Part shown: positions 1-35,293 of the stretch, piece by piece
Position numbering within the stretch: position 1 is the first letter of the stretch
Layout: each line of letters starts with the position of its first letter
Source: Asterionella formosa
Taxonomy: Eukaryota
Assembly (NCBI GenBank): GCA_002256025.1
Contig: NKIB01000057.1
Span: 1 to 35,627, forward strand
Direction of reading: 5' to 3'
DNA: 35,627 nt
Program-made: the position numbers and the translations under genes
Notes under the pieces: generated by a model
What the model was told of the DNA's origin: nothing
Seen by the model: the letters and a program-made list of their open reading frames with translations, nothing else
The model's database searches: none

Positions 1-449
1 AATAATGGACCTTGTTCGGCACATATTTGGCAAACAATACTACCTGGTACCATCCTCATCAGTAGACATAATTCCACCAGTGTTGATTTTGAGTAATAAT
101 AATCACGTAAAAAATTGGGTTGTCTACCACTGGCTAGTAGCTAGTACAGTTACCTAGTACCGGTAATAACCTACATAACATGAAAACTGGGAAGAGGGAG
201 CTTTTTTACCGGTAAGTGAGAGTTCTTCATGTGATGTGTACAACCGTAAAACTTTGATCTCAGATGGATGACATTAGACACCACAAATATCCTTACTATT
301 TCATTAAGTAAAATGCGTGTTGTGAATGTATTAGCCTCAAGAGCAGGATCTTAGTTGAACTTTCAAATGAATTATTTGAAACATCAACTAATTCAGTCTC
401 GCGTTCAAAATTCATTGTGAAAACTTCACATGAAACAGTTAAAACTTCA

Positions 450-1360
450 TAATATAATAACGTGTTCAAAGTAAGCGTTAAAGTATAGCTTAAACCATGC
501 ATGGTTGTTTTCAGTACCACGTACGTATGTAATAGGCTCGATGACTTCTGGTACCGGTAGAATATCCGTTAAGCATCATCACATGCATGACCGGAGCAAA
601 AACTTGCCACCAACATCAGATGTATCGCTATCATCGCTCGTTCGACGAAATATGGACGATGCGACTACATGAATCCCTCGAGAAGACAAGCAATCCAACA
701 ACCAACCGCATCCATTAGACAACGAATCGCTACTCGCGTCATGGCTGAACTGATTTCGCTTCAAACCGGTAATGATGGACAACGATCGGCATGGTGAAAG
801 GTGAATTGCCGGAGTCCACTTTTCAGGAGACGAACAAAAACGAGGTGAATTCTTTATATAAATTATCAAAATCTGTATAGTATATAAAATGATTTCCTCA
901 ACAAGTAGACCCCTTGCCAATTTCGGCAATCCCAGGGCTAGAAAAGCGAGTGGCAATTGCTACAAATTTTAATCCCAAATGCGAAGATAGGAAATATACA
1001 AAATATATAATAATGATAGGCAATATCGGACCCATTGCAAATTTCGATGTGAAGATAGGAAATAAACGAAATATATTTTATATGATGGGCTATAGCGAGC
1101 TAAAATTGACATTTTCACTCAATGAGTGGGCAGTAGGTAAGCGAATGGCAGCTAGTTTTTGAATTGCCTCAGCAATACCCTTCTTGGCGGCTACTTGCCT
1201 TCTCGTATAAATGTGTACTCGGCTGGGATGGCACTCGTAGGCTGACCTTCTCGCAGTGCTGGGGGCGCCACTCGTACAGTCAACCTACTCGTGCCACCCA
1301 GCCTCAAACACATGTATACTTGCAGGAATGAGACCGCCTCGGGCGTGTATTGCATTCAAC
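450..1360 (+). repeat. ~0.9-kb dispersed non-coding repeat, copy 1 (inverted copy at 11858..12826)
   Basis: Co-linear reverse-complement match, e.g. 903 aagtagaccccttgccaatttcggcaatccc vs 12352-12381 ggattgccgaaatcggcaaggggtctactt. The shared ORF-track peptide PKCEDRKYTKYI...EWAVGKRMA appears on opposite strands. Internal ~70-bp tandem duplication (gaagataggaaata..). Confidence 0.9.
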
Positions 1361-1429
1361 ACTAACAAATAACGAGGAAAAAGAGAGTTACTAAGACTAC
1401 TAGGCCTACCGTCGTACTCTGTTGAAATT

Positions 1430-1632
1430 TATGGCGCTTCTTCCTAGCATGCTCCAGTACTGCCCTGGAATGACCTGTCAAGATCTATCTTATGCTACTC
1501 GTCGGCATATTATTCTGCTACCTGGTACCGGTATATAAATACTGTCTCCTATTTCCACTTAGACATTCGTCAGGCTACATCTAGTCTTCGAACACCTGTC
1601 AACATCAACAGCATAACAGACACATTCTGACA
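1430..1632 (+). repeat. ~200-bp dispersed repeat, copy 1 (inverted copy at 24223..24410)
   Basis: tatggcgcttc..ctccagtactgccctggaatgacctgtcaagatct..acatctagtcttcgaacacctgtcaacatcaacagc matches the reverse complement of 24223..24410. Confidence 0.85.
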
Positions 1633-3183: not shown

Positions 3184-5484
3184 TCAAAGAATCTGCTTCT
3201 GGGCAAAGAGACCAGGTATAGAAAGAATCCTTTTTGCAGAAATCTGCATTGAGTCCCTTTCTTCTTTTCTATCTGAGTTAAACGATTCTTCTGGGTATAG
3301 CAGGCGAAGAGCCGGTGTAAGCTTTGCGGCTACAGCCAAAGTGGCAGGAGTAATGCGCATGAAATCAAATGCAAAAATTATTGGAACTCCTTGTGTTGCT
3401 TCAATTTGCTTTAGTTGTGGGAGTTTTGGGTAACGCTGCGAGAAATGCGTGAGTACAACTGCCTTTGCCCGCATGTTCTTTCCAATTTCTAGCGCTTCGC
3501 CAACAGTAGAATGTTTCTTCAAAACTGCTTCGTCTTCCATACCATCTTCAAATGTGGCCTCATGGATCAATAGGTCTGTGTTGACAGCTTGCTCTGAAAA
3601 TTGAGTTGAGGGTCGGCAGTCTCCACTGTACGAGAGTCGGCCGAAGGGAGTCCCATCGAAACAGACTGCAAATGAATGTGCACAATGTGAGACTGGGACA
3701 GCGAGGCAGCGAGTGATGCCTAAGCGATGCTGCATCATTGCAAGCACTGTAGGTGGCATTAATTTCGGTGCAACCATGTCATGACAGTCAACTGGTATAT
3801 ATCGGTCTCGTATCGACGTGTCAACTGCCCCATACTCGTCGAGAAATCTAAAAAGGCTTGGCGGCGCCATCAAGATTATTGGTAGACAGCTTGGAATCGA
3901 TCGTTGTTCAGACAACAGGCGAAGTAAGCCAAGATGGTGATCAGCATGTGGGTGTGATATCCAAACTGCCTGAACGCTCCGAAGAATGCCGATATAGTCA
4001 CTGTTTTGTGGGTCTGCACGAAGGAGTTGTCCAATTGTGCCCTCACCGACATCCAAGAGCATTGAATTCCCGTTAGGTATCCGAAGTACTATTCCGGTCA
4101 CGTTTCGGTGCTTGCACGGGAGTGCAGAACCCGTTCCTGTAAAGATGAGCTCCGCGTCAGTTATGGCGTCAGATGCCTTTGCTTCGATCGAATCTAGGAT
4201 TTCAGCTGCTTTAGCTACCGCACCGGACTCGTAAGCCAGAGACTTCGCATCCTTTAGTTCAGTTTCTGTCATGACGGTCCCTGAATAAACCAGACCTTTT
4301 CGAGTCCGAGGGATCAGCGAGTATTCAAGCATTCGAGTTGCCTTTATAATTCTAACATTTCCTGTTATTGTGGATTGTTGAATTTGAGATTCAAGGTTGG
4401 CAATTGGAGATGGATAAATTTCGTCATGCACAATCGATCGGGTCAGTGCTCCGAGAGCCGCTGATCGAAAAGCAGTTCCCCCCACTGGAATCCTAGAGCA
4501 GTCACTGATGTTTTCGATTGAATCCATCCAAATATGATCAACAAAACTTGGAAACGTCTTAATCCATTCTTGATAGCTGATTCCTTGAAAAATATTTGAT
4601 GGAGTAACATGAATCATTACATCCATTGTTGGGGCACCATTAACACTATCGCCTTGCAGCTTCGCTAGCTGCTCCGATTGCTCCAGTTGTGTCAAAACGT
4701 CGTTCGAAGGACAATATATAACAGCAATGGCAACTCCGGGGCTACCTTCCAATAGAACTTCTTGACTTTCTACTTTCCTTTCGATTCCGTCGATGATGAC
4801 CTTTACTGATTGGCCTTCTTTGAGCTTGGCATAGAGTGGGCCAGGAGGAATACCGAGTTCCTTGGCTTTTTGTGGAAGGAATTTGCCTTGAATCGGTGGC
4901 GTCTTTATAAGAAATGATAGTATTTGTATTTCTACGGGACCAGATTGATGAAAAAGTGGTATCGTCTCGATATAGAATCCTCGTCGGATGAGATCAACAT
5001 GGTCCCTCATTCGCTTTTTCGATTTCTGGTTGCTCTCGTTCTCGTCCAGGTAAGCTCCCTCGTGGATTCGCATCTGAAATTTTTCGCGTCTCATGAAATG
5101 ACGAAGGGAATGCAAATAAGCGTGTGTCCCTTTCGGTCCAATTATATCAAGGCCGGGTTTTTCATTTGTTGAATCATTCATTGGCTGTCTTGTTGTTTCT
5201 TGGCCTTTCGTAGCATTGGCGTGGATTGCATTTTGCATGGCAGCCTCAGCAACATCAGCCGTCGTTAGAATCATTCCAGGGAGTCCACCGACGGATGTAT
5301 GCGATATATGCGTCAAGCATACTCTTGTAACGGACCGAATCTTGAGACCGGGTGCTTCAAGAAAAGATCGCTGGCAACCCTCGCCACAGTTGATCAATAC
5401 TGAATTTCGATTGGGTCCCACCAAAAGAATTGACGGCGATGAATCAAGAGAAGATGTTGTCAATATCCTAATGGAAGATGTCAT
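3184..5484 (-). CDS. ELAC2: Long-form ribonuclease Z (tRNA 3' endonuclease, ELAC2/TRZ1), 766 aa, intronless
   Basis: N-terminal NCGEGCQR and GLPG pseudo-motifs, GIPPGPLY exosite, GTGSALPCKHRN PxKxRN loop, LLDVGEGT, ISHPHADHH metal-binding motif, YSGDCRP, HEAT, HST and THFSQRYPK. Confidence 0.97.
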   Translation of the reverse strand: MTSSIRILTTSSLDSSPSILLVGPNRNSVLINCGEGCQRSFLEAPGLKIRSVTRVCLTHISHTSVGGLPGMILTTADVAEAAMQNAIHANATKGQETTRQPMNDSTNEKPGLDIIGPKGTHAYLHSLRHFMRREKFQMRIHEGAYLDENESNQKSKKRMRDHVDLIRRGFYIETIPLFHQSGPVEIQILSFLIKTPPIQGKFLPQKAKELGIPPGPLYAKLKEGQSVKVIIDGIERKVESQEVLLEGSPGVAIAVIYCPSNDVLTQLEQSEQLAKLQGDSVNGAPTMDVMIHVTPSNIFQGISYQEWIKTFPSFVDHIWMDSIENISDCSRIPVGGTAFRSAALGALTRSIVHDEIYPSPIANLESQIQQSTITGNVRIIKATRMLEYSLIPRTRKGLVYSGTVMTETELKDAKSLAYESGAVAKAAEILDSIEAKASDAITDAELIFTGTGSALPCKHRNVTGIVLRIPNGNSMLLDVGEGTIGQLLRADPQNSDYIGILRSVQAVWISHPHADHHLGLLRLLSEQRSIPSCLPIILMAPPSLFRFLDEYGAVDTSIRDRYIPVDCHDMVAPKLMPPTVLAMMQHRLGITRCLAVPVSHCAHSFAVCFDGTPFGRLSYSGDCRPSTQFSEQAVNTDLLIHEATFEDGMEDEAVLKKHSTVGEALEIGKNMRAKAVVLTHFSQRYPKLPQLKQIEATQGVPIIFAFDFMRITPATLAVAAKLTPALRLLYPEESFNSDRKEERDSMQISAKRILSIPGLFAQKQIL

Positions 5485-5749: not shown

Positions 5750-6824
5750 ACGTCAGCCATCACAATCAGAATAAAATGATGTATGCTCCAGCCAATCACA
5801 ACGACTGTGCTTTAGTGTTTTATATACAAAAGAATGGCTTTCTGAGGCCCTTCTTGTCAGCGCTTTTCTTGGTATGTTGTTTATATTTTTGGTTTTGTTC
5901 CACTTCCTGAGCTTCTCCTTCTTGCTATTTATGAACAAAGCATTTTAAAGTTTCAAACCAGAATGGGGGTCATTTCAAACCTTTCTTGTTGGCGCTTTCT
6001 AGGTATGATGTTTTTGTCTTCCTTTACCTTTTTTCTCTCGATGCACTGACAAAAATGCTTCTCTATCTTGTAAAATTCAGTGATGAACCACACATTTGAT
6101 GGGGTAGTCTATCACATTGACCGACAAATAAAAGAATGGTACATATCATGGATGCAATGTTGTTGATTCAGATATGTTGCTTTGTAATTTCTAAGCATGA
6201 CTATCCCATTTTTTAATTCTCCACTCTTCTTTCTCTCAGATCCTACCATATCAAAACCATTATTGCTTGCTTAGTTTTATTATTCATTTTAATCAAGAGT
6301 CAAGAAGTGCTGATGTTTTGGAAATGCTTGTGAGGTGAAATGAATGCTGCTCAACCACAAGCTAGAATGGTGCCCACATTCGTATTTCCTACTATACTGC
6401 CTTTCTTTGCTTGCTTTTAGTGCCAGCAGCTTGATGGCTGCTCACTTTATTTACAACCATTAGCAACTGCTTGTATTTTGTTTGACTTCATTTGCATATA
6501 GAAATAACGTGATTGTTGGGAAAAAAATATTTGTGGTTCTTGATCAAGAAATTATTTCATGTGATATACAAAGATAATTTTAGTTTGCACTAAAAATTAT
6601 TTGGGTTTTAAAATAAATTATGAAAGTTGTCGAAACTTTTTTAGTTCCCTGTTATTATATATATTTTATATGATGCATCACATTTTATATGTGGCCATAC
6701 CCTTAAAAATGTAATGAGCCCAATTCGTCATGCTGGGCCACCCAAATTATTAATTTGGGTGATCTCATTTGAATTAGCGTTTTTTCTGGTGGCTGTAGTA
6801 GTACCAGTAATTGCTTTGTAGATG
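5750..6824 (-). mobile_element. Degenerate second copy of the CATCTA-ended non-autonomous element (see 21116..23166); left boundary approximate
   Basis: Reverse complement from 6824 (catctacaaagcaattactggta..cagccaccagaaaaaacgcta..aatttgggtggcccagcatgacgaattgggc..tataaaatgtgatgcatcata) aligns to 21116-21350. Confidence 0.7.
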
Positions 6825-7718
6825 TAACCAGCATGTACTGCTATTCTGTTCACCCTGCACTTGTAAACACCATCACCTAAAAGTACACATACAGAACTTC
6901 ATCACAGCACGAACTTAGTAGTTTATTGTTGCCCATCAACAGTTGCAGCTAGCCAATGTGTCCTCTTTTCCATTGGGTAGGGGACATGGCCTGGCCATAT
7001 TGATCTCAAATCCCAAACCCCAAAACTTTTCTTGCCTTCCGCCCAGTAACAGCGATTAGATCATCAATGGCTGCAATTCCGCAAGGACAAGCAAGGGAGT
7101 GGTCCTTTACCCTCTTGCACTGACTACTGGAACCCATGATTTATTTTTTGTGACTTTGTGATGTTATGGATCAATCATCAGTATTATTGTATTCATGTGA
7201 ATGAAGTTGACTAAAATGTCTAGTAATAGCTAGTAGCTAAGTGGCAAGAGCCATTATAATATGCTTATTGTATTTGGCCAGTACAGTTGGAGTCTACTAG
7301 TAGGTAAAATTAGACCAAAACGACAAATTTTGGTTGAGGAAGAAAGCTGAAAGTCAGCTGCAGTTGGAGTCTAATAAAAGATGACAAAACACATATTTTG
7401 ATTGATGAAGGGGTTTACCACGAAAACAAATGACAGCACACAGATTTTAATTTACGAAGGGGTTGCCCACGAAAACCAAATGCCCAAGAAGGTTTTGGTT
7501 TTTGACAATAGGGTCAATAAAATATTATTGGGGGTTTGGCCATTGAAACACTTTTATTTGGCTTTTGACCATCTCTTCTCATGGCAAGATAGCTGATACC
7601 TAGTACTCTGGTACCGTACCCAATGCTGTAACAAGTACAAGCTTGACACTAGGAAGTCACGGCCTCATACCGATAAGAGATTGGACGCTAAAAGAAGTGT
7701 GGAAATGTGAACTTGTAT

Positions 7719-7796: not shown

Positions 7797-8202
7797 TTCC
7801 TTCTTATTCCATTTCCCTGGATTTTTAATATCAATATAATATACAGCATGGCATACCGACAACCTCGTGGATTTATACACCGGTACCAGTAGTATACGGG
7901 AGAGACTTACGATAGTCGTGACGATACATAGGAACATATCAAAATTTTATCAACCCAGCACTGTCCTCGTAGCGGTACCAGGTACCTGGTATTCGTTACG
8001 AGGTAGCTCAACTAGACTACCGGTACTTGGTATGAATAAAGTACAACAAGTGCATCATATGACGGTGTGTTGTGTGGGGCTCAATTCTTCATTCCTAAGA
8101 TCCCATTATTATGGGTTATTCGTGCTGTTGACAACACATAGGACGCCGCTGTTATAATTTCTAAGGGCTCTTCTGTAAATCTTCTGTCGCACTCGATCAG
8201 TG

Positions 8203-9300
8203 ATGGAGCAGGAAGGTCCATTTTCAATCCTTCCAGTGCTCCAACCAACATGGAAAAGGACCTTTCGATATAGCGATGTCGAAGCCATCTCTGGTGGCGT
8301 CGGTGCAATCTGCCGTGTGTGCCAGAAGAACGACACCCGGTACAATTGCCCAAAATGCGCGATTGCGTACTGTTCTGTGATTTGCTACAAAGACCACAGT
8401 GAAACATGCTCCGAGGCCTTTTATCGAGATAGGGTCGAAGCAGTAGTGCGACGAGAACAGAAGGAAGGGTCTGACGAAATCCACTCGATTTTGAATCGTA
8501 CTCAACAGAATCTTGATGAAACGGTTTGGGAAGGTGAATTGTGGACACTGGCAGAAGCTCTAGAGAAGGGATCGTTGACGGACGAGGAGACCGAGAGGCT
8601 TTTGTCACCAGATATGAAGTCTGCTTTCTATCATGCCGTCAGGACTGGCCAGCTAAGCGACACGATTCAAAGCTGGCATCCATGGTGGATACCCGAATAC
8701 GCAGTTGCCAGATCCAATAAAGACAGCACTGTTCAAACCAAAGAAACGCTAGATGATAGGTTGCTGGCGATACCAAGGTTTTCTTCGCTACATCCTGGTG
8801 CAATCTTGTCACAGGAACTAGCTTACAATGCCATTGACTTGCTCTATAGTGCAGCCTTGACCCTAAGGCAATATCATGGGAGCGAAAACGCAAGAATCGT
8901 ATCAATAGAAGCATCGCGTTGTTTGTTACAAGCCTCTGCGGTCCTTCGCGACGACGCTCGATACTTTTCAGTCTCCGAATGCTTATTGGCCTGTGTGTCG
9001 ACGAAGGCGTCAATAGATTGGAAGATCCTAGTCGATGATGTATCTCGACTATGGAACCGACGAGATATTGCGCATACGCTCTTGGATGTTATTGTAATAA
9101 TAAAGGCCGCATCGAAAGAGCTTCAAGGAATGGAGGCCCAAGTCATGCGAAAGCACAGGAAGAAATTGGAGTTCTACTTATCTTGGTCTCGCGATGTTTG
9201 CTTTTTGGCTGAAGTACACGACGAGGTCAAGCAATGGGGCACGAATTGGTCATCACCAAAGGAAAGTCCCTCCATTGATTATTGTGGGACATCACTATAA
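8203..9300 (+). CDS. ZNHIT2: Zinc finger HIT domain protein (ZNHIT2-like), 365 aa
   Basis: CRVC..YNCPKCAIAYCSVICYKDHSETCSEAFYRDRV zf-HIT domain with the ZNHIT2-type CSEAFY extension, WHPWW, and C-terminal KKLEFYLSW. First ATG is at 8203. Confidence 0.85.
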   Translation: MEQEGPFSILPVLQPTWKRTFRYSDVEAISGGVGAICRVCQKNDTRYNCPKCAIAYCSVICYKDHSETCSEAFYRDRVEAVVRREQKEGSDEIHSILNRTQQNLDETVWEGELWTLAEALEKGSLTDEETERLLSPDMKSAFYHAVRTGQLSDTIQSWHPWWIPEYAVARSNKDSTVQTKETLDDRLLAIPRFSSLHPGAILSQELAYNAIDLLYSAALTLRQYHGSENARIVSIEASRCLLQASAVLRDDARYFSVSECLLACVSTKASIDWKILVDDVSRLWNRRDIAHTLLDVIVIIKAASKELQGMEAQVMRKHRKKLEFYLSWSRDVCFLAEVHDEVKQWGTNWSSPKESPSIDYCGTSL

Positions 9301-10285: not shown

Positions 10286-10464
10286 ATTAGCACTTACAAT
10301 GACAGCAGCATTGTAGACCTAACCTCATCAGCTTTGGGTGCATTCGAAGTGTTATCTTGTGTAGTCTCCTTGACAGTCTGTTCTGGTTGATCTGGAGCGG
10401 AAACCTCATTATTTTTAGATGAGCGATGTATGGCAGGATGTAAAATAAACTGGTAATTAATTCA

Positions 10465-10740
10465 TTTTGTGCTCGTCTAATGGTGGTGTAATTAAAATTG
10501 CTCAATTACCGGTATTGCATAGAATTTTGCTATTTAATTTTTGCTCATATTCCGACAAATGAAGACGAAATTGTTCAGCCTTGATAGGTTTTGTTTTTTA
10601 CCCAGGACTTTTTTTGCTCTAACCTTTTCGGTTTTGCTCTATCCTGAACTTTTTTGATTAATTGATAAATTTGTTCCTCACTACACAAAATTTTGCTCAT
10701 TGCTCCAATCATTTGCTCATTGCTAAAAATTTGCTCATTG
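10465..10740. repeat. Cluster of TTGCTC(A) motifs in AT-rich DNA, possibly a transposon subterminal array
   Basis: aattgctcaa, ttttgctcat, tttgctctaa, tttgctctat, and ttttgctcattgctccaatcatttgctcattgctaaaaatttgctcattg. Confidence 0.45.
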
Positions 10741-11089
10741 AAAGTTGGCATGGTTTAGCAGTTATTGTCTTTTCGTAATTGCGGTTATAATTTGAATTTA
10801 CTTAATAAAAACATGGGCTAGAAAGTCAGCCGACTCCAACGGTCGGTTGTAGTTTTGAGTTTCGCATCCAATTATTTGCAGAGTCTCAGACTTCATCACG
10901 GAATGGTGGAACTGCAGTAGCAGACATAGCAGGAGAAAGAATAGTAACAGGAGGAGTTGCAGCAGCAACAACCACAGCAGGAGGAGGTGTATGGAGAGGG
11001 AATGGCGGCTCCTCGTCACCATGGTGATTGGTGTCTTCGAATCTTGTAATTAGAGCTTGCCTTGCTTGTTTTAGGAACCGGAAAATCAC

Positions 11090-11565
11090 CTGATTGTTTG
11101 TACTGTCACACTGTTAATTTCAATTCTGCAACAGACATTTGTTCTTTTGTTTTGTTCTGTTCCTTCAAGGTAAGTACTTTTCCGAAAAGTGTATTGAATT
11201 CTTGTTGCCTTTTTGTTCTTTTGTAGTACCAATGAATGTCCAAAATTCGCTTCTGTTCCAGTACTGTAGCAGCAAGAATACTATTTGGCCCAAGGGCAAA
11301 GGTTTGTGCAGAGGCCAGTAGTTCTGCTGTTAGCTATCCTCTTCTTGTGTTCCCCCTTGTCAATGTGGGAATCTGCTGTCGCCATCCTCTTTCTAGATTG
11401 GGCCTCCTGGAAGATTCCATTTTGTACATTCGCATGTTTGCAAAACTCGTTAATTTTTCGAAAAATTGTTTCAGCAAGGCCAGTTTGGAGATTTAAGTTG
11501 TTATCAGGAAGGATGGTGGCAATAATTTATGTGGGCGCATTGATGTTCTGTTGCAGTTGGGTTAA
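11090..11565 (-). pseudogene. Decayed coding remnant, possibly the C-terminal region of a Tc1/pogo-type transposase
   Basis: Manual translation with stops gives ..NLNLQTGLAETIFRKINE..RG*LTAELLASAQTFALGPNSIL..QEFNTLFGKVLTLKEQNKTKEQMSVAELK. The resemblance is from memory, not a search. Confidence 0.3.
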
Positions 11566-11857
11566 TTGAATCTCAGGGTGAGCGAAGCAACAAGACATCA
11601 TCGCTCAGGGGATACCATCCTCAATCGGAAATTGCTTTTTACCTAGTTGTACTACACATGTCCTCCTTTTTTGTTATCTTTGTGTTTGTAATTGTCACCT
11701 TTGTATTTGCCTCCAAACTTTCCCAGGGAAGCACACCAGTGTTTCCAGTTTCATATGCCGAAGTGTCCATTGTTAATTGAGTATCATAATGCTCACTCAC
11801 ACCTTCATTATTGCCATCCTCTTCCTTGAAAACTTCATATGAATTATGAATGAGGTT

Positions 11858-23168: not shown

Positions 23169-23673
23169 AGCTTTCCATTCTACATCCTCCTTATCAACGT
23201 CTTTATTCCTAGACTCTCCGCAAATAGCATCGCAGGTTTTGACATTGTGTCCTTCTTCCTTTTTTTAAAAGCCAGCCACTAGAAGACTTTTTATTATGAT
23301 CTGCTTCAAATGCTTTGGCAATTGACAAAGCTTTGCTTGTAGGATGGGACCACTAATTGGATATCCATTTGCGCGAGCAGTAAAAAACCATATACATAAC
23401 AATATGTTGATTTCTGTACCACTATTAAGGCAAGCCATTTTCATTGATTGCATCGATTCTCCTTTTATCAGTAAGGACTCCTTCCTTTTTTTGAACAGTT
23501 CTAATGCTTAGGGCAAGTTTAAAAGTAGCTTCTCGAGCACTATTTCCTTCACCCAGAAGCTTTATTGCTGCTAATTTTTTATCAAATGAAACACTTTTAC
23601 ATATTAAGTTCATTTCCGAGATGCTCTTCACAACAGTTCCTTCCATTCCCAATGTTGATGATGCCTGCATCAT
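23169..23673 (-). pseudogene. pogo/Tigger transposase N-terminal CENP-B-type HTH domains (frameshifted)
   Basis: SVSFDKKLAAIKLLGEGNSARE.., WFFTARANGYPISGPILQAK, SGWL, and HNVKT..ICGES..VDKEDVEWK. Confidence 0.88.
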
Positions 23674-24222
23674 GGAGATTGAAATGAGTGAAAGAATAGA
23701 AGCAAATGGACAAGAAACGATCGAGGTCCCTTTTAGTTAAGTATAAACTAAAAATTATTTTAAAAGCTGTCATCATTTACACGAGGTATCACAAGTGATA
23801 GTACCAACAGATCATTACTAAGCAAGATGACGTGGTATGTTTCTACTATACTGACGCTTCTATTACATGCGTAAGCAACTGGTACTGAAGACTGTCAGTG
23901 CACAGTGATTTGAGATTAAAAAAACAAATCAAAACAAGGAAAAAACTACTGGCTTAAACTGAGTGCAGACTGTGCAGCGCTCGTTTTTATCTTATACAGA
24001 GGTCAGAACAACCAATTTTTCAGCAAAAGTGCATCCAAGTGGATCTAATGGAGAGGCTGTATCTTATAGAGAGTGTCACTTAAAAGGATAACCAAATTTG
24101 GGGTGCTTCATTGAGAATTTTTTTTATGGAGAGGGTGTATCCTCGAGGGAGTGTATCTCATATCGGAGGTTCCACTGTACCGTATATGGTGCAACTTCAG
24201 ATACGTATATACCGGTATGTAT

Positions 24223-24410
24223 GTCAGAGTGTGTCTACTAGGCTGTTGATGTCGACAGGTGTCCGAAGACTAGATGTACTAGTCTGAGGAATGTCTAAAC
24301 GGAAATAGACAAGATTTATATAGCAGAATAATATGCTGATGAGCAGCATGAGAGAGATCTTGACCGGTCATTCCAGGGCGGTACTGGAGCGTGGTAGAAG
24401 AGGCGCCATA
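24223..24410 (-). repeat. Inverted copy of 1430..1632
   Basis: Reverse-complement alignment; lacks the 13-nt cctggtaccggta present in copy 1. Confidence 0.85.
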
Positions 24411-24671
24411 TACCTCAAGATACTATGTGCACCCCAGCATATGATATACCGGTATATACCGGTTCATATTTAGTATTCCCTCGCCCCAAAAACACTTGTT
24501 GCATCGATAATTCAAATTTCCCTGGGGCCATCATTTTGAAGACTATAACTTTCTCTGGCTCAATTGCCCTACATATTGTGCGGGTTGCTCTAGACGCTAA
24601 AGATACATGCATATAATATAACTACATAGCAAGATTAAAATTGGCAAGCACTCCGGAGTACATACTGTTAA

Positions 24672-25270
24672 AGTTGCAGCCCTGCAGTCACAGATTGCGA
24701 GGTCCTTTTTTCCCAAAATATTAAAATGATGTACCTCAATCCACATATTATGTACAACAAAATAAAATGGTTAAAGTTATAATTAGATTTCACCAATATG
24801 ACCACTTTGCATATGCTTAGATACATTTATTGCTCAAATTAGGGGCATGTTCTATATTCAGATATGGTATCTGGAGAGAAAGTGCAATTCTGTATCATAG
24901 ATTTGTAACTATCCCAAAAACAGTCAAAAAAGGGGGCTATCAAGCTTTAAAAAAATCTACAATACATAACTGCACTTTCTCTCCAGAAGTAAATCCTGAC
25001 GTTATAGGTTACACGGCTATCTATTTTTATCTTCATGAGACCCCATTGATGTGTGTAGTGCAATCGTCCACCAAAAAGTCGACCCGATAGGCTTTTTCAA
25101 CAGTCGCAAATATTGGAATCTGAATTTGTACATGCGAAAACATTCTTGTAGATATAGGAGTCTTGCATATGTATGTTTTGCTGCATAATTCTCAGTCCGA
25201 AAAGACTCCTGGGTAAGTTGCCACATCACATCACATATTCTGATTGGTTGAATTGAATTTACTTACCTGC
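24672..25270. mobile_element. Terminal ~600 bp of a diverged Kolobok-family element
   Basis: Begins ttaa|ag. Patchy co-linear similarity to 25649..26245: tttcaccaatat..catatgcttagataca..caaattaggg..atctgg.gagaaa.tgca; ccaaaaa.tcgac; atatt.tgattggt..ttacttacc. Confidence 0.65.
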
Positions 25271-26243
25271 TCCACATTGGCTGTAGTATTCCGGTCTTGT
25301 AAAATCATGCCAGCCAAACTTGAACCAAACGTATTAGATGTAAAGTATACCGGTAGGTAAAATCAGTACTACTGATAGTTTCATCCTGTCTTTCATCATC
25401 ATGAATGAAGATTATGAACTACCGGGATACCGGTACTCTGGTACTTTGGTAATGATTTATACATATACGTTTGTAAATGGAGCAATGTCAAACTTACATT
25501 CAGCAACAATATAATGAATAAACACGAACCAAGAGCATGTTGGCATACCGATACTCCTTTTTATATACCGGTATGTGTTTTGGCATTGAGCAAAATCATT
25601 CAGCAACCTAGATATGGTACAAACAATTAAATATCATTGTTTGTTTAAGGTTCCTGCATTTGAACCCCTAGCTCGAGGTAGGGTTAAAAAATAATATTGA
25701 GTCAGAGTAGTCAAACTTACACTTCTTCGCCAAAAACGTAAATGTATATCGCTAAACGGAGCTTTCACCAATATACACCCTTTTCATATGCTTAGATACA
25801 GTCTTCTGACAAATTAGGGTTATAGGTCAACGCTGTATATCGTCAGGATATACTAGGATCTGGCGAGAAACTGCAGAAAGGAACTTCTTTTTTTTTAACT
25901 ATGCTGAAAATAGTGGATTTTATCGGGCCAACTCGTTTATTTGGCCTTTTTGCAGTATCTCGCCGAAAGTTAACTTCTGGGGCTATATGAAGATTTCCTA
26001 TGTACTTAACTCTTCTTCAAACCCTGCCAACGTTGAGCTATTGTCGTCCAAAAATCGACAATATCGGCCTTTTCAACGGTCACCAAAATGTAAGAATCAG
26101 AATCACTAATTGCCGAAACGTCATCATCGGAATAGGAGTCTTGTGATTCGATTTTTCGTCCTACAATCGCCTGTACAAAAAATTCCATTGTAAGTGCACG
26201 TTTCACTATAAATATTTTGATTGGTCAAGTTCAATTACTTACC

Positions 26244-27938
26244 GACAATTGATTCGCCTTGCAGCATTAACCATTCGTATAAATTTTTTTCCTTTTCCTT
26301 GTCATGATATTCTCCGTTACTAACCATTTTTCCTGCTTTTAAAGGGCACCATATCTCAGAGCAGTAATCGTGGCAGCCAAATAAATGGTTGATTGGTGCC
26401 TTGGAGGAAATACTAAATTCGGCCAGAGAGAGGTTCCGGTTTTTTTAAATCCAAGCGCCATAGTAAACTTTCAACCGGCGACAATCTGCTTTTGAGGGAC
26501 GCTCGAGGGAGACTGGGCCATTGGATTTCATAAAAGCTGGGCGGAGAAGGACCTGTACTCTGTGGGATGGGTCAGACAGAAATGTAGGTTCGGGTACAGT
26601 CAGTGGAAGGCATCCTTTATCCGGTTTTTTCAATCCTTTCAATGTTCTTGGCCATTGGAAGGATGGCTGCAGTTTCAATGACTCCTTATAGGACCACTTA
26701 GAAACAGCTCGAATAGTAGAATCATCATCACAGATGATTGTAGAGTAGATAACATTGTTTTTCATTACTGCATCAATCATCATTTCCACACCAGCATCTG
26801 GTTCCATTGCTTTTGAACTACCAGTTACATGATTCTTGGGACAAACATGTTCCTTGATTGGTTTCTTGTACCATATAGCCCTGTTGCACACATCACAGAA
26901 CTTAGATTTCACTTTGTAGTCTAGTATCTTTTTCTTGTAGCCGCCAATACAAAAAGCATGTCCACTTACAGAGTTGTACTTATTCCCGCTGGACCACTGC
27001 TGCCAGCCCATATCGTAACTAAGAGTGAGTTGAGGCATATTCAGTACAAACAAGCGATCCGTACCAGTCAGACTGTTCCACCACTGAAAATCACGTCCTT
27101 TGTCAGCCCAGTCTCCTCGTTCATGCACATTGAGTGTTAGATATATTTCCTCCTGACACACCTCTTTCATTGCAAGAGCGGTTGCAGTAACTTCAGCGTT
27201 TCCTATCAGTTCCTCTACTGCTACACCAAAGTTACCTTCCGTAGACCAAAATCCAAAGGTAAGTGGAAGATTTATTGCGGAGCAGATGATATCTGCATCT
27301 GCTGGTCCCATTCCGGCTTCGTGACAACCCAAAATAAACTGTTTGTTGATAGAAAAGTGTTTTGCTTCTATTGCGTTATTTCTTATCTTATCATTTCTGT
27401 CTCCATTGCTGTTGCTTCTTGCAGGCTCGAGTTTAGAAATCAGTTTCTGACAGGTCAAACAAGAGACTTTGAATTCGCTTGCCAAGCCGTAATTTTTGGT
27501 AGAGACAACAATCAACGGCTGTTTCATTGTTGAAATCGGAAAGTCAAGCACATCCTGCTCCAGAAATGATTCACATTGCTGTTCAATGGACAGCTTTTGT
27601 TGTCTATTTGATGTAAAGTAAGTTACAAAATCACGAAGTGATTGTTTGCAATCTTATTTTACACATTTATTAACACAACTTTTGCAATACATATCTTCCT
27701 GCAGAAATTTCGACAATGTATTATAGTCGATTATATGATTCGTGTTCAGTTGAGAGCAGTCTTTTTTAATTGATGATGATGTGATTGCTAGTTCAATTGG
27801 TGAAGTGGTTGTTATAGGGGGACAAAAAGGCATCTTAGAGGTCCACCAATTTTGATTTTCATCGGACGCTATATTTCGTCCTCCTTGACCACCAACACCA
27901 ATTTCGGAAATGAGACGGCTACCACTGGAATGTGGCAT
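26244..27938 (-). pseudogene. Kolobok-type ('Mutator-like') DDE transposase, single frame broken by two TAA stops (27654-56, 26445-47)
   Basis: CxxC pairs, SYDMGWQQ.SSG..YNSVSGH..IG..KILD..SKFCDVC..HVCPKNH..GSSKAME, ICDDDS and SDPSH. Past the second stop: HLFGCHDYCSEIWC. The 102 bp between the two track ORFs is open and in frame. Confidence 0.85.
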
Positions 27939-28114
27939 GATTTTGTCTTATAATAGTTGGTGTTGCTGTTTTTTATGGCTGGTTGATTCATTAGATTGTG
28001 TAAAAATATATTTGTCATTCATGCCACCTCCTTTCTAAATGGTTTTGAAACATCGTACGTAGGTGGATTGAAGTTCTTGATTTACTAATGAAATAAATGA
28101 AAATCTTAAAATCA

Positions 28115-28573
28115 CTAATCACTAATAGATTTAGAACATTTAGAACGTTTGGAAGTTGGTTTGAAACCAGTGTACACTTCGTTTGGGTCCTTGTTCTTCA
28201 AAAGAGATTGAACCCCCTTCAAACAACAGTCAGGAAGTTGCATCCGAACACCTTTTCCCAATGGACCACTGAAAACTCTGATTAGAAACTTGTACAGAAG
28301 ATTGCGGGCTCTTGATGCCGTAATGTCTTCATCCTTCAACCTGGTAAGAATGGATTCACCTTCCAGAAACTTCTCCACCAACTCTTCGACTTCATCCCAT
28401 TGGCACTGATATTCAGGGCAGCAAAAATCGCAGCATTCGCAGAAGATGCAATCCTCACATCCCTCCACATACGACTCTACAATCAAGTGGTCTTGGCAGG
28501 TAGGACAACTATCATGACTGCAGTTAAATTCATCATTACCATTGTCATCATTTTGATGTGTAATTTCGCTCAT
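28115..28573 (-). CDS. KolX-like accessory protein (P2X7 cytoplasmic ballast-like domain with Cys-rich N-terminus), 152 aa
   Basis: RARNLLYK..FSGPLGKGVRMQLPDCC..VQSLL..DPNEVYTGFK fits the R..Y....G.LG...R..LP.C....YTGFK signature. It lies inside Kolobok TIRs and the ORF is intact. Confidence 0.75.
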   Translation of the reverse strand: MSEITHQNDDNGNDEFNCSHDSCPTCQDHLIVESYVEGCEDCIFCECCDFCCPEYQCQWDEVEELVEKFLEGESILTRLKDEDITASRARNLLYKFLIRVFSGPLGKGVRMQLPDCCLKGVQSLLKNKDPNEVYTGFKPTSKRSKCSKSISD

Positions 28574-30449
28574 GGTTGATTGTTGCTTTTTTGTTTCTTA
28601 CCGGTAGTCATCAACAATATGTGCCATGCTGCCAGCTCGTCTGACACATATATGTTGATTGTATGATAGGGTATATGAACATTGAGCGATGGAGAATGTT
28701 TATGTATATATTTATTTAATTCGAAAAGGAATCTATGTATGTACGCACAAATTTCCAGTGATTCAAATATTTCAAATGGAATCACGTCATTCAAAATTAA
28801 CTCATAAAAATTCTTAGTTCCAGGGAATTTCGGCAACCCTAAGCAATATTTTAATTTTTGCCTAGGGGTTCAAATGCAAAAAACCTTAAAATGGAACTCT
28901 ATCAATCTGGCACCGATTCCTATTTAATTCAAATATTCAAATCGACACTTGAATCATGGGAATTCATAATAGGAAACTCCCTGTTCATGCCGTTTTAACA
29001 ACCCTAGTGACATTTTCTCCAAACTAGGGTTAAGCTGGGGACGCAACAATAATCTGAGTATTGGTATTCCGTACAGGCGACGTACGAGCCATGCCAGCGT
29101 AACCACCAGATTAGGTACATGTGTGAGTGCTAATAACAATGCACTCATGACAGCAATAGAATACCGGTACCAGGTACCAGCTACGGTAGTCATAATATTG
29201 TAGCTCACCTTTATTAAGCAGAAGCAGGTTCCTCTTAACACATGCGGCCGTTTCAAAATCCTTTTTGGGCTTTTTCGATTTCCACTTGCTTAGCTTCCGT
29301 AATGGCTATCTCGACCAAATGCAGATGCATGACCATTGACGACCCGTTCTTCGTCGAACGACGTACCTACCCGGTATGTATTTCTCAACACACATAAAAG
29401 GTAGAATATAACAGTAGAACAACGGCAACTTGACTTTCATAGTGGATTGTGTACCACCCATATGTACAAGTTGCGATGAGGATGCGAGGGAAGAAATCGA
29501 TGGTATGCTCGTTTTGATCAATCAGAACTGTTAAATATCTGGCGCAATGGTCGATGTATGTGTATCAAACGTTGAAAGTGGGTAAAACCACTATTGTTCT
29601 CTTCACATTATAATTTTGATACTGAATTTGTGTTGTTCCGTTTCCCGCAAATATTTGGGTGGCCGGCCGAAATAGAACATCATTTGGCGAAATGTTGATA
29701 ATCTAAATGAATATATTTATTCTTCATGCGTTCCGAATATTTTATTTAAATATAATTTATTTGATTATTCATTGCAAGCTTATAGTCACGTCTAAATTAC
29801 TCATAAGAAACAGATCTTAGATCTTCCGAGTAAGCCGACCCTCAAGTGGAAATTTGGAATATAGTAATCCGTCCTAAAATTTGCTGCTCGGCACTGAGTG
29901 TTCCGATAATCGATCCAAGTGTTATCGGACAGAGGAGTAACAATTTGATGCCTACCGGTACCGGTGTTGCTTTCCCAACAATTGTCAAGGGGGTGTTTTG
30001 TACCAGGCTCACCACAGTAGATCATACCAGTAGAAGAGCGCACAGGGAGGGGAGGGGGGTTGATAGACTCGCTGGACTCGTTGGTTATTCTGGATATCTT
30101 TGAATATGAGAAGAGCTGGACTACCCCGGCAGCTGTTAAATGCATAGATTTTTGTCTACGTAAAATATTCGGTAGAAATAGGTATATGAATATTTGAAAG
30201 TTTGAATAGATCTTATATATGATTCGTAACTATATGTTATGTATATCCACATCAACTTCGAACTTCTTAAACACTTGCCTGCCATAAACCACCTCTAAGG
30301 AGTGTTTTGATCTCGCATGCAGGCGCACTACCGGTAACACACTTGAGGGATTATGAAGCAATCCAGTTCATGCAACATATTGGTTGTCGGAGGTAATTAG
30401 ATCCCTTTGAAAGTCTGATTGAACTTTGAGAGGCACCGACGAAGAGCCC

Positions 30450-33443
30450 ATGAGCGCATTTTCTCGAAATTATGTGCTCCTTGCTGCGGCATATGCAATT
30501 GGTTTGGTTAGTCAAGGAGAATGCAGTTCGACGGATCCAGTCTCTTTCATACCGCGTAGAGGACGTAGAGACGTAAGTTCCAGTACTAGAGGTACTGAAA
30601 ATTCATACATCCAATCGTCGCGTGGAGGCGATGGCCCGGAAGAAAGTAGCATCTTTGACGTAGATTTCTACGATGACACCAATTCACGATATGCCGATGA
30701 GCTTGAGGATGTTGTTGATCGTTACGACTTCGACGACGGGGCCTCCTTTGACGATGTGCATCAGGGATACGGAGAAGTCAACCGTGAGGATTATCAGGAA
30801 TCTGACGAAATGCAACCCGGAGGAAAAGATGCTCTATACAAGGCGTATAACGAGCTGCATACGGTTGCACAAGGTAGGTTTGCAGGTATCTATGATGTTT
30901 TGAGTGGTTTTGTGTGCACTAATATCTCGTCTTGACAAACAGAATTCAGCAAGCCTTTTGATGCACCGGCTGTAGTAGTTGTTGGTCATCAATCCTCAGG
31001 GAAATCAGCTCTAATTGAGGCTCTAATGGGTTTCCAATTCAATCAAGTCGGCGGGGGTACAAAGACGCGGCGACCCGTGGCCTTGCGAATGCAATACAAT
31101 CCACGGGAAAGCGAACCGAAATGCTTTTTGCTCGGAGAAGACGGGGTTGAGCGTCCAATGTCGCTACAAGGAATTCAGGACTACATTGAAAAAGAGAATC
31201 ACAAACTGGAACGAGATCCGACGAGATCGTTTGATTCTCGAGAAATTAATGTCCGGGTAGAGTATAAATATTGTCCAAACATGATTCTTATCGATACACC
31301 AGGTCTGATTGCTGCTCCTAAGGTACCTCAAGGGCGGAACGGCGCCGGATCTGCATTTTCGCAGCAACGAGCTCTCGTTGCGTCTGCTCGTGAAGCTGAA
31401 CGCCTAGTGGTTGAAAAAATGCGCTGCCAGGACTATCTCATTCTATGTGTGGAAGACACCAGTGACTGGAAGCATGGTGCGACAAGAGAAATTGTACAAA
31501 AAGCCGATCCTGACTTATCACGAACGGTAATTGTAAACACCAAATTCGACACAAAGATACCGCAGTTTGGAACGCCCTCAGACATCGAAGACTTCCTTCG
31601 TGCAAGTATTCTGGACAGGATCTCTCCTCACAAGCTCGGAGGGCCATTTTTTACTTCCGTCCCCAGTGGCCGTGTTGGTCGCCAAGAACTAGATGGTGAA
31701 AGTGGTGATTTCCTTTACACGAACGACGATGATTTTGTTGCCGAATGCGGGGAGAACGAAAATAACGATCGAACTGTTGTCGCGTCAAAGTTACGACGAA
31801 TGGGAAAAGCCGGGGAAGTAGCTAACGCCGGATTGTCTGGCAGAATAGGTCTAAGCAGACTTCGTGGATTTCTGGAGCAACGTGTTGACGAAAGCTACAG
31901 GCGGAACGTAGCAAAGATCATCCCAGTGCTTCAATCAGAATACGTTGCGGCAGAACGTCGCCTGCGAGCTTGCGAGAAGGAATTAGATTCGTTGTCGGTT
32001 GAGAGACTGAAAGCTGGAGCAGACGCTTTTTGTGACGAGTTTTGTAATCTCCTCAGAAAAGCGCTACAAGGGAGCATTATTGCACCCGCCAATGTATTCG
32101 GAGAAACGCTGTCCCAAGAGACTGGTGCCGCAGGATCATTTCATGGTAAGCCCCCAATTCAGGTTTTTTGGTAAATCACTTGGCATGTACTCAAATCGTT
32201 GTTCGTCGCCGCTTAGATGTCAACAATTGCCCTATGTCTGTTTCCGATCGAACATGGGATCGACTAGTGGAGACTGAAGTTGGTCACAATGAACATCGCC
32301 TTTATGGGGGGTCACAGTACCACCGAACACTTCGTGAATTTAATTTGGCCACGAAATGCCTCAGACTGCCAACTATCAGCGAAGACGAGATCGCGAATGC
32401 TGCCGGAGTCGGCACCTCGCACGATGGAGTCAATTTCTTACACGCTGCCTGCGTTATCGCGCTTGAGAAGGCACGCGTGTCATTCGAGCCACTGCTTGAA
32501 GCGTTAAGGGTTCGTGTGACGCACGTTATGGAAAGACTATGCCCTGTTGCTGAGTATATGCTCCGCGAGAACGAAGAAAGAGAAAAAGCAGCAACTTCGT
32601 CATATAATTTCATGGACGACGAAAGGGATCAAGAAAGTGTTGGATCTTCCAATCGCGCAACTGATATTTCGCAGAATCCGCAGTTCCGGCAGCTCGTGCG
32701 GCGAATATTCGACAAGTTTGTTCAAAAGTGCTCCAATGCGGTATGTTAGTTGGTATTGATTTGCTGCATTTGCGCTAGTACTGTCTGACAATTTTCGCCT
32801 TCCACAGTCATTGTCGAAATGTCGAGACGATTTAATTTCTATAACTCGGTACGTTACATGGAATCTTGACGAACGAAGTAGTGGGGCCCTGCGACGATCG
32901 TTGCCCGACAAGACTGATTTGGTTGCAGTCTATCAAGTTGCAGTGCAAGCTTCCAAGAAAGCAGAGAGCGACAAGGAATCAGGTAGTTTGACACGTTCCC
33001 AACAAGTGTTAACTCCCATTCCGGATGAGCGACGGAATGAGGACCGCGATTACTTTAATCTCCTGCAACTCATGGAAGAAGCAGTGTGCTCTCGAGATGC
33101 AAACCGTACTAACCTTGTTGTTGGTGGGCTTGTGCAGCATATTGTATCTCAGTGGCGTGAACAATTTGGCAGAACAGTCACAATGAAGTTCAACTGCTAC
33201 TTTATGCTTCCATTTGTAGACGATTTTCACAAATTTATGAGAAAAGAATTGCAGAATGTGTACGAAGGAGAAGGTGATCTTAATGATGTCTTCAATCTGA
33301 ATTCGGCCAGAAAGGCTTTGGAACAAAGCCGCCAAGAGTTGGTTAATGAATGTACTGCCAACAAAAGGCTGCAAGAAAAGTTTGATGCCATTGCTCGTAT
33401 GATGCGCAAGCAGCAGGGTATACAAAACAATGATTTCCAATAG
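30450..33443 (+). CDS. ARC5: Plastid-division dynamin-related protein ARC5/DRP5B; 4 exons (30450..30873, 30943..32145, 32217..32740, 32808..33443)
   Basis: LYKAYNELH..AQ/EFSKPFDAPAVVVVGHQSSGKSALIEALMGFQFNQVGGGTKTRRP, DTPG, TKFD, PFFTSVPSGRVG, RLYGGSQYHR and KFNCYFMLP. Three in-frame GT-AG introns of 69, 71 and 67 bp. N-terminal signal peptide. Confidence 0.95.
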
Positions 33444-34194
33444 GATTGAATCTGTCCCTATTTCTCCTCAATATTGTTCCAATCGAAACTTTGGTCTGCC
33501 TGCCTGTGAGCTCATCCGATGATTGGTCCAACAAACAATGCTGTCTTTCAACCACATCTCTGTGTTTTCTGTGTTGGTTATCTCTTCTGTCTGTACAGCT
33601 TTGTTGCTACCACTACGTAATGGAATCATTCATCTCATGTTGAGTTTGAATAGTCATGATGACTCCCATGCACAAATCGTTGCATCCCCACACCTCAAGC
33701 CAATCTATGGAAACCGACGGTACTTCCCTGTCTTTATCATGTCATGGGTTCTATTTAAGAAAGCCATAACATTGATAACATGCTCTAAAATTCACCAAAC
33801 CTTATTTTCATCAGTTTTTAAAAGGATTGCTTTGCTATTAAAGATGGCCTAGTATTGGCCCCTTGCTAATGTTGCTGGTATTCTTATTCAGACTTCTCGA
33901 TAGCAGGATGAGCTGCATGTGAAACCTTAAATGACCTAACAGTGATTCGCAACTACTGTTATGAAAGTGTGTAATTGAGATTTGTTCAATGTAGGAAGGC
34001 TCTATTTACCAGGTAAACTACGTTACCAGTAGTGGATGGCAATAACGACATCTACATTCTGATTTGTTCATGACTCGACACCATGAATTTTCCTATCATG
34101 TTCCAGTATTACTAGCAAAGCAAGCTCACCAGCAGAAAAGAATAAAAAATAACTTCATAAAGTAGCATCAACTTTTACATTATATAACTATGTT

Positions 34195-34746
34195 TCAGTC
34201 CTGAGCTCGACACTCGGTGGACTGATTACTGTCGTCAGCGAAGTCAGAAATAGGGGGACCTCCACCTTCTTCTACCTCAACAGCTCTTCGACTAGCTTCG
34301 TTTCGAAGCTTTCTCTCTGACGCAGTCTTCTGCGCTTTGGCCAACTGCTTCTCTGACATGGTCGACTTCACATAATCAAATCTGGACGCAGTCAGTCCCG
34401 TGGCTTCCGTCAGGGGTTTGCCAATCCGTTCAACAAATGCCACCACAGCGCCAAGCGTACCGACAGTCCGATGCCACAGTTTTGTTTTCAAGGGCAATTC
34501 ATAACTGCCAGTGTCCCAGTAATATTCTCTGGGAATTGGAATAATCTTGCGGACAGCCCACTCAAGGGGATCCATTTTGGGGTCGTTCATGTCGACTTGA
34601 TAGAGTTGAAGTTCTATTGGGATGCCATCGTCGCGCGGCTGATCCTCCTCCTGCGAATCATTGCTACTTGAAGGCACGTCCAAAGATAGTCTAGATACCC
34701 CAGAGGAGTATTCTGCAATCCTTTCGTCGTCGTTCAGTCTTGTCAT
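34195..34746 (-). CDS. Hypothetical protein, ~183 aa
   Basis: Open ATG ORF with coding-like GC content and protein-like composition (acidic N-terminus, aromatic core REYYWD..KLWHR, TGLTASRFDYV, charged helix). Family not recognised. Confidence 0.65.
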   Translation of the reverse strand: MTRLNDDERIAEYSSGVSRLSLDVPSSSNDSQEEDQPRDDGIPIELQLYQVDMNDPKMDPLEWAVRKIIPIPREYYWDTGSYELPLKTKLWHRTVGTLGAVVAFVERIGKPLTEATGLTASRFDYVKSTMSEKQLAKAQKTASERKLRNEASRRAVEVEEGGGPPISDFADDSNQSTECRAQD

Positions 34747-35293
34747 GGTCACAGTCGTGGAATACCGGGAAGCAAATCAAATACCGGTACCAGTTAAAAA
34801 TGGCTTGGAGCCACTTCGAATGGCTTTGAGTCACTTAACGATATAATATGCATTGTGTATACATAGATTCTTTCTAATTTTTCAGTTATGACTATTTTTA
34901 GTAAGACAAAGTTGTTCCTCACGTTGCGCCGGATACAACAGATCTAGATGTCGGGTAAGGTCTGTGTTTTAGAAAATCAGATAAATGTGTCGGAAAGTAA
35001 CGATCGGCCCAAAAGTGGCAAAAAAAATATACCATTGAGCCGGCATTGCCCGGAAATACACATATTCATTAATTAAAGACATTTAATATCTAATATATAT
35101 TTAGTTGCGTTTAACCGCCATGGACAATGTACTATAGCAATAAATCAATCAATTCATCACTCTTGGTAAATGAATGCAATATTTCATGAAGGCCAAAAAA
35201 TCGAGCCTTAGATATTTGTCTGAGACCATAATTCACATCAGAAATTTCTTCCGACATACCGCAAAATGAAGCAAATCGCAGTCATCTCCTTAA

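Follow-up and report, generated by a model that had tools for sequence, protein, structure and literature searches.

TA-flanked CC(W)GG words in a repeat-rich contig of the diatom Asterionella formosa: probable excision scars of a putative mariner-type transposon family

On excision, mariner-type transposons leave a short footprint in which terminal nucleotides of the element are enclosed between two TA dinucleotides. The non-transferred strand is cut 2 nt inside the element by Tc1 and Tc3 and 3 nt inside by Mos1 and Sleeping Beauty; Tc1 and Tc3 leave TACATGTA-type scars, the canonical scar of Sleeping Beauty is TAC(A/T)GTA, and Mos1 leaves 3-nt scars. Here we examine words of this kind in a 35,627-nt stretch of Asterionella formosa (GenBank assembly GCA_002256025.1, contig NKIB01000057.1, positions 1 to 35,627, forward strand), hereafter the window, in which the palindrome TACCGGTA and its longer form TACCWGGTA (W, A or T) recur and which holds a miniature inverted-repeat transposable element (MITE) with the tips CCAC...GTGG.

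Excision scars are usually rare curiosities at single loci, and DNA transposons are little studied in diatoms. An abundant short palindrome is also known from cyanobacteria, i.e., HIP1 (highly iterated octameric palindrome), which occurs in genes and between them and has no target duplication. Repeated use of one site has been described for Stowaway MITEs in intron 4 of Triticeae beta-amylase genes: the TA-flanked scars there hold 2-4 bp of one element end and 1-2 bp of the other, an element was newly inserted at a TA beside an older footprint, and repeated gain and loss at one site was inferred from sequence comparison alone (PMC1925063).

In the diatom window, the strongest word bias in the DNA is of this type. 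We hold with good confidence that these words are excision scars of TA-targeting, CC...GG-tipped elements of the ITm group (Tc1/mariner/pogo) and, with moderate confidence, that the CCAC...GTGG family is their main source.

Abundance, origin and arrangement of the words

We call a perfect TACCGGTA or TACCWGGTA an exact unit and an imperfect one a decayed unit. The window holds 20 sites of TACCGGTA; in 100 shuffles that preserved the dinucleotides, the mean was 0.15 and no shuffle had more than 1. TACCWGGTA has 10 sites (centre T at six, A at four), where the shuffled mean was 0.19 and the largest count 2. With one mismatch allowed, the counts rose to 42 (6.4 expected) and 26 (4.6 expected), an excess over chance of about 57 scar-like units in 35.6 kb. 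Under an order-2 Markov model TACCGGTA was the top over-represented 8-mer (z 36), while ACCGGTA headed the 7-mers and ACCGGT the 6-mers. The original prediction, made from the letters of the window, had placed at least 20 copies of TACCGGTA and at least 10 of TACCWGGTA and had estimated under one expected copy of the 8-mer; all 30 coordinates proved to be exact matches, and both the shuffles and the Markov model bear the enrichment out. Exact units thus occur at a density of about one per kb, and the commonest one-mismatch variant is the CpG-transition form TACTGGTA/TACCAGTA (7 sites, 1.4 expected).

The flanking sequence differs at every one of the 30 exact sites, so these are not one repeat counted repeatedly. 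Nor is the motif an assembly artefact, because scar-like units are also carried by the independent metagenome contigs L001, L100 and L116 and by contigs from a sequencing run of another study (X6), one of which spans 14037-14583 gap-free and a second 29964-30399.

Paralogous repeat copies point to the way in which the word is made. Copy 1415-1632 reads CTGC-TA-CCTGG-TA-CCGG-TA-TATAAAT (1515-1540), and its inverted paralogue 24222-24425 reads CTGC-TA-TATAAAT (24322); the two differ by 13 bp, i.e., by two units, each bringing its own TA. Likewise, copy 14465-14583 reads TCGC-TA-CCGG-TA-TA-CTGG-TA (14522-14541), and both the window copy 19714-19811 (19755-19760) and the metagenome locus L002 read TCGC-TA-TAT there. 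As these are two independent copies without the units, 14526-14541 is polarised as an insertion. At 1519-1533 and 14526-14541 there are therefore extra bases at a duplicated target relative to an empty copy, as in a footprint. Judging from these copies, which represent two places and four units, the motif comes into being when 6 or 7 bp, CC(W)GG+TA, are inserted at a TA that is already there, and not by substitution, the origin that the original prediction had named as speaking against it.

At a third place, the site at 552, the paralogue carries the decayed unit GACCGGTA at 12725, and the 552 scar is therefore older than the duplication. A census of indels of at least 4 bp over 7,024 aligned columns of paralogous copies gave 36 rows. 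Three of them (two places) are made wholly of scar units, one is a 6-bp TTCTGG case at 552, two (one place, 14813) start with CGGTA and fit in part, and 30 are ordinary indels.

The sites, with their coordinates in the window, are as follows.

41-49: scar unit TACCTGGTA
158-165: scar unit TACCGGTA; a one-mismatch 9-mer, TACCTAGTA, adjoins at 151
207-214: scar unit TACCGGTA
546-559: TACCGGTA with six extra bases, TTCTGG, unique to this copy; decayed counterpart at 12725-12732
1519-1533: double scar TA-CCTGG-TA-CCGG-TA; the inverted paralogue 24222-24425 has a lone TA
7970-7991: array TAGCGGTA-CCAGG-TA-CCTGG-TA, one decayed and two exact units
8018-8032: TACCGGTA, then the decayed unit CTTGGTA
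10507-10514: scar unit TACCGGTA
14526-14541: TACCGGTA and TACTGGTA, within a subterminal piece of the CCAC transposon family
14666-14681: double scar TA-CCTGG-TA-CCTGG-TA
14716-14743: four-unit array CCGG-TA, CCGG-GA, ACCTGG-TA, CCGG-TA, ending at the TA that flanks the transposon arm at 14744
18253-18260: scar unit TACCGGTA
19609-19618: scar-like unit TACCAGGGTA with a 6-nt insert; its final TA serves as the target duplication on the left side of the MITE
22117-22145: four-unit array TACTGGTG, CCAGGTA, CCAAGTA, CCAGGTA, the final unit exact
22290-22298: scar unit TACCTGGTA
24210-24217: scar unit TACCGGTA
24447-24464: TACCGGTA-TA-TACCGGTT, one exact and one decayed unit
25348-25355: scar unit TACCGGTA
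25420-25435: TACCGGGA and TACCGGTA, one decayed and one exact unit
25566-25573: scar unit TACCGGTA
28599-28606: scar unit TACCGGTA
29162-29183: triple array TA-CCGG-TA-CCAGG-TA-CCAGC-TA
29953-29966: TACCGGTA and CCGGTG, one exact and one decayed unit
30329-30336: scar unit TACCGGTA, in nearly single-copy sequence that lies upstream of the dynamin-like gene; also in an X6 contig
34007-34015: scar unit TACCAGGTA
34782-34796: TACCGGTA and CCAGTTA, one exact and one decayed unit

The units follow a simple grammar. Between TACC and GGTA there is no base at 20 sites, one base at 11 and two bases at two, neither of the latter being CCATGG. The single central base is T at six sites, A at four, C at one and G at none, and the probability of at least 10 A/T centres among 11 is 0.027 at the AT content of the window. 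The extra bases correspond to terminal nucleotides of the element, i.e., CC or CCA joined to GG or TGG, as compared with tips reading CCAC...GTGG. These size classes, with A or T at 10 of the 11 centres, are those foreseen as CC+GG, CCA+GG and CC+TGG. As a separate observation, TACGGTACGG-type words (TA-CGG-TA) lie at 14813-14826 and 14842-14853, and TACGGTA/TACCGTA occurs at 8 sites against 2.8 expected; such words may be shorter scars (1+2 nt) or the product of another family.

Exact units share a TA in four pairs, where 0.37 would be expected if 30 events fell at random among the 2,374 TAs of the window (P = 0.0004), and further arrays that include decayed units lie at 14716-14743, 22117-22145 and 29162-29183. 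The tandem placement of many units, the like units in the pair 14666-14681 and in the run 22123-22145, and the 22 sites of GGTACC against about 6 expected are what would follow from slippage of a GGTACC-type micro-repeat, or from a tiny 6-7-bp palindrome that is copied into TAs without a transposon. However, three of the four TA-sharing pairs consist of unlike units, which simple slippage would not produce, and when exact units within 60 bp of each other are grouped, 17 of the 22 groups hold a lone exact unit with nothing to slip on. Every unit is bounded on both sides by TA, the signature of a target duplication, and we know of no mechanism that copies a 6-bp word to dispersed sites. We therefore give slippage or transposon-free copying very little credence. 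Read as excision scars, the arrays, together with the scars found at element ends (see below), indicate that the TAs of old scars were used again and again for insertion and excision. An array could grow by reinsertion at or beside the donor site, or by a target preference for GG-TA-CC-like sequence.

The distribution of the units relative to genes bears on a further explanation. Most of the window is high-copy repeat, since the summed word depth over 10400-30399 in run X2 was about 850 in a few bins and 10^5 to 10^6 in most, these sums being word depths and not copy numbers. Four open reading frames (ORFs) have a Pfam match.

3184-5484: tRNase Z ORF, the longest in the window
8200-9300: zf-HIT ORF
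26445-27551, minus strand: Mutator-like transposase ORF (PF20700, E 4e-39), in a high-copy stretch
31026-32174: dynamin-like ORF

None of the 30 exact units lies inside these four ORFs, in keeping with the claim of the original prediction that intact host coding sequences are free of the motif. Five of the 30 fall within a stop-to-stop frame of 213 codons (14314-14952, minus strand), which was counted as non-coding because it has no family match and crosses transposon ends. With regard to the nature of the window itself, the best named relatives of the tRNase Z are diatom proteins (41-47% identity) and an identical protein lies on a JGI metagenome contig, and DNA of the window was detected in freshwater, lake and algae-metagenome runs from 17 studies. 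The Mutator-like ORF shows that the window also holds a second family of DNA transposons, one not related to the CCAC family.

A perfect palindrome that is absent from coding ORFs might instead be selected or maintained, e.g., as a transcription-factor or promoter site, or as a HIP1-like word kept by a methylase or a repair bias. The sites at 28599, 34782, 30329 and 10507 lie 25-230 bp upstream of ORFs, and ACCGGT, CCGG and CCWGG are classic methylase and restriction sites. However, the ORFs beside 28599, 34782 and 10507 are without family support, and a window that is mostly high-copy repeat is not one of promoters. The word is moreover created within mobile-element copies by insertion at TA rather than by substitution, its three length variants have in common just the TA...TA frame and the transposon tips, and the stacked arrays adjoin transposon ends. 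We regard maintenance of the palindrome as the least probable explanation of all, and its HIP1-like form, which had been raised as an alternative from the start, does not fit a word that comes from indels at TA and is missing from the Pfam-supported ORFs.

The CCAC...GTGG family and its candidate transposase

One complete element and several pieces of the family and of its presumed autonomous partner lie in the window.

19619-20364, plus strand: MITE of 746 bp, flanked by TAs at 19617-19618 and 20365-20366
14744-14864, plus strand: incomplete left arm of the family (CCACCTAAAAACTG...), with 70% identity to 19608-19728
10889-11580, minus strand: degraded C-terminal third (residues 502-723) of the transposase gene, found by tblastn of the protein P0121
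14380-14583, minus strand: subterminal and 5' part of a broken copy of autonomous type, which matches 129-585 of L002

The MITE, whose existence as a TA-flanked CCA...TGG element had been claimed beforehand, was recovered in a scan of the window for TA-flanked terminal repeats. Its inverted terminal repeat, CCACTTAAAAACTGTAAGCC, matches at 20 of 20 bases, and its subterminal region holds repeats of the word CTGTAAGCCACCGCT. Barring chance pairs of one scar with another, the scan found no other element with at least 14 of 20 matching terminal bases in the window. The arm at 14744 starts directly after the last TA of the four-unit scar array. A right arm, which had been expected to the left of 10861, was not recovered in a local alignment (score 28, shuffled maximum 23), and among 13 short frames of 10798-14554 there was no Pfam family above the curated cut-off and no transposase family.

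A 17-base pattern from the terminal repeat was used to scan metagenome loci; the pattern was short for a collection of that kind, and of the 117 loci obtained, 113 were chance matches and four (L001, L002, L100 and L116) were related to the family. Across the window and these loci, all seven element ends start with CCAC directly after a TA, in keeping with a TA target duplication. Five of the seven adjoin a scar-like ...GGTA unit, as in L001, where ...TACCTGGTACCAGGTA is followed directly by CCACTT. The four related loci hold five exact units in 5,006 bp (about one per kb), and the 113 unrelated loci, which serve as a background sample, hold five in 248,309 bp (0.02 per kb). Of the expected CC...GG-tipped, TA-targeting family with appreciable copy number, the family itself is thus present (MITE, arm and four metagenome loci), and word depth hints at a high copy number.

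The candidate transposase was found in L002, where a 498-codon open frame (L002:557-2050, plus strand) starts about 520 bp inside the same terminal repeat. P0121 (723 residues, 99% identical) is the full-length form of this frame. Its family comprises at least 348 proteins, with up to 93 members per 90% cluster, all of them labelled hypothetical and without a precomputed Pfam domain; one member is from the diatom Fragilaria crotonensis. Sequence and profile searches of the PDB with P0121 were both empty, and no transposase relative was found among viral contigs. The nearest named clusters in the ESM Atlas are DDE_1 (0.86-0.88), a match at the level of a lead.

An alignment of 36 members revealed three conserved motifs, FVDEVG (D241), LLLDGHGSR (D390) and WQVGDSxEQNG (D428). 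The three aspartates, a candidate DDD/E triad, are conserved in at least 90% of the 36 sequences, with 37 residues between the last two; ITm triads have about 30-41 residues between the second and third acidic residue, and that of Mos1 is D156/D249/D284. An AlphaFold2 model of P0121 (mean predicted local distance difference test score, pLDDT, 83.9) places D241 on strand 1, D390 after strand 4 and D428 just before a long helix, and this predicted placement fits that of the acidic residues in RNase H-like transposases. The top rows of a Foldseek search with the model were Mos1 mariner complexes (E about 0.005, probability 0.98). In a second structural comparison, model residues of about 170-508 gave Z 13.1 with the transposase domain of Metnase and Z 13.0 with the catalytic domain of Mos1 (191-193 of about 200 residues aligned, root-mean-square deviation 3.1-3.4), Z 11.6 with Sleeping Beauty and at most 9.1 with retroviral integrases; for Metnase, Mos1 and Sleeping Beauty nearly the whole target domain was aligned. 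The model thus predicts an RNase H-like catalytic domain of the Mos1/Sleeping Beauty type, and the P0121 clade is, on this prediction, one of mariner-fold transposases, whose membership of the ITm group rests on fold, TA duplication and terminal repeats and not on sequence.

Proposed mechanism and points against it

By analogy with known systems, the transposase would cut the non-transferred strand 2-3 nt inside the element, and each flank would keep TA plus CC or CCA as a 3' overhang. Trimming of the unpaired A followed by end joining would give TACC+GGTA, i.e., TACCGGTA, the commonest form with 20 sites. Where two terminal A's overlap instead, an A:A mismatch would be left, which repair or replication would turn into a central A or T (TACCAGGTA or TACCTGGTA); near-equal numbers of A and T centres (four and six) and no CCATGG would follow from such a mismatch. 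The scars would persist in non-coding DNA and decay slowly, chiefly at the CpG (TACTGGTA/TACCAGTA). Each scar would also offer two TAs, and new insertions and excisions there could build mixed arrays such as TA-CCTGG-TA-CCGG-TA.

More tentatively, and with rather less than even confidence, we suggest that scars feed back on later transposition: by doubling the TA in a tip-like GG-TA-CC frame, or through re-entry at the donor site, a site would be reused and become a long-lived hot spot marked by a growing mixed array. In this lineage the unannotated transposase clade would have left about one scar per kb of non-coding DNA. If this is true, transposon scars account for a large share of small insertions and for the top k-mer of the genome.

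Several points weigh against the scar interpretation or against the CCAC family as the source. The cleavage stagger is assumed by analogy. No site was found at which one allele or copy holds the element and another a scar; among the joints and indels listed for contigs of four runs on 10400-30399, a region dominated by repeats, there was no joint at 19617/20366 and no scar indel (an X6 contig over 14554-15273 holds six gap letters, their position within the contig not being given). X6 has the scars of 14526 and 30329 as well, and these two therefore look shared, old or fixed rather than recent. The flanks of L100 and L116 are alike and may represent one insertion, which would reduce the element ends at scars to four of six. 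Copy number of the family is hinted at solely by word depth, which in a culture-like run is several hundred-fold above single-copy bins and is not a count. For the transposase, P0121 and the L002 frame have no Pfam match at curated thresholds (DDE_1, DDE_3, Transposase_1), one of 36 family members touches DDE_1 (E = 0.001), and all Foldseek E-values exceed 0.001. The outer flanks of isolated scars, judged by eye from the site listing, are only mildly G...C-biased, and a strong GG-TA-CC target preference was for this reason not adopted.

Two further points concern the source in particular. The one complete and two fragmentary copies of the CCAC family in 35.6 kb stand against about 57 excess units, a high ratio. 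In addition, CTCTGGTA and CTTTGGTA at 25436-25451, CCAGGG at 19611 and CGGTACGG at 14813 fall outside the grammar and would have to be explained by decay, by untemplated bases or by a second family; the units CTCTGG, CTTTGG and CCAGGG do not follow from CCAC/GTGG tips. The units could accordingly be real footprints that come mainly from other TA-targeting CC...GG families, with the CCAC family sharing their tips and entering their old scars, and our view is restricted to the window, with most of the genome lying outside it. However, the terminal-repeat scan of the window revealed no such second family, the centre of the 5-nt class is A or T as a third tip base A predicts, and the family's own ends adjoin scars in five of seven cases. 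We consider a different main source unlikely, and retain the CCAC family in that role.

Other repeats in the window

Further repeats are recorded here in their own right. At 16572-16900 a 93-bp unit is repeated in tandem about 3.5 times; its copies are 72-88% alike and have an internal inverted repeat each, CCAATACA...TGTATTGG. The repeat copy 11857-12826 has a 65-bp insertion at 12077-12141 that is not in the paralogue 449-1361; contigs of all four runs include forms skipping 57-64 bases there, so copies with and without the insertion coexist, and it could be a very small mobile element. The segments 6538-6825 and 21115-21361 are an inverted pair of an AT-rich repeat family (70% identity) with the over-represented word GATGCATCA. 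A further pair, 25607-25947 and 35251-35627 (87% identity), ends in a 41-nt hairpin-like inverted repeat (35507-35547 / 35587-35627).

Comparison with described systems

The mechanism proposed is a known one at unusual density, from an unannotated diatom transposase clade. What looks new is the density of the scars, which form the top k-mer, their excess over elements and the mixed arrays, as well as the diatom clade itself, with its predicted mariner fold and a catalytic region that holds about 140 additional residues. Our literature search found no report of TACCGGTA or of dense scars in diatoms; the word gave primer-type matches among those listed, and the search did not cover subscription journals. 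A k-mer count could serve as a readout of the lifetime cut-and-paste activity of a transposon family and of end-joining use in diatoms, the mixed arrays naturally record how the same TA was used over and over, and a P0121-type transposase with known ends is a candidate native transposon tool for these algae.

As in Tc1/mariner footprints, the TA is duplicated, and between its two copies lie 2-3 nucleotides from the tip of each transposon end. The A/T ambiguity at the centre is shared with Sleeping Beauty, where it is explained by a mismatch between 3' overhangs, and the catalytic fold predicted for P0121 is that of the Tc1/mariner enzymes. The diatom scars differ in being the top word at about one exact unit per kb, in outnumbering the resident elements and in forming mixed tandem arrays, and P0121 differs from Mos1 in being about twice as long and in having no Pfam family.

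The DDE_1 (PF03184) transposases of pogo, Tigger and Fot1 share the TA target, and the P0121 family gives weak DDE_1 signals; we also take the LLLDGHGSR and WQVGD motifs, with the second and third acidic residues, to resemble pogo. However, P0121 stays below the curated Pfam threshold, and its best-matching solved structures are mariner and Sleeping Beauty, with no solved pogo-type transposase among the structure matches listed. With HIP1 the diatom word shares massive over-representation of an 8-bp palindrome; unlike HIP1, it is made by insertion at TA, is not found in supported ORFs and tracks a transposon.

The Stowaway record in the beta-amylase intron is alike in its TA-flanked, tip-derived scars, in the insertion of an element beside an old footprint and in resting on sequence comparison (PMC1925063). 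It concerns one locus across a plant tribe, whereas the diatom window has dozens of sites within 35 kb of a single genome and arrays of up to four units.

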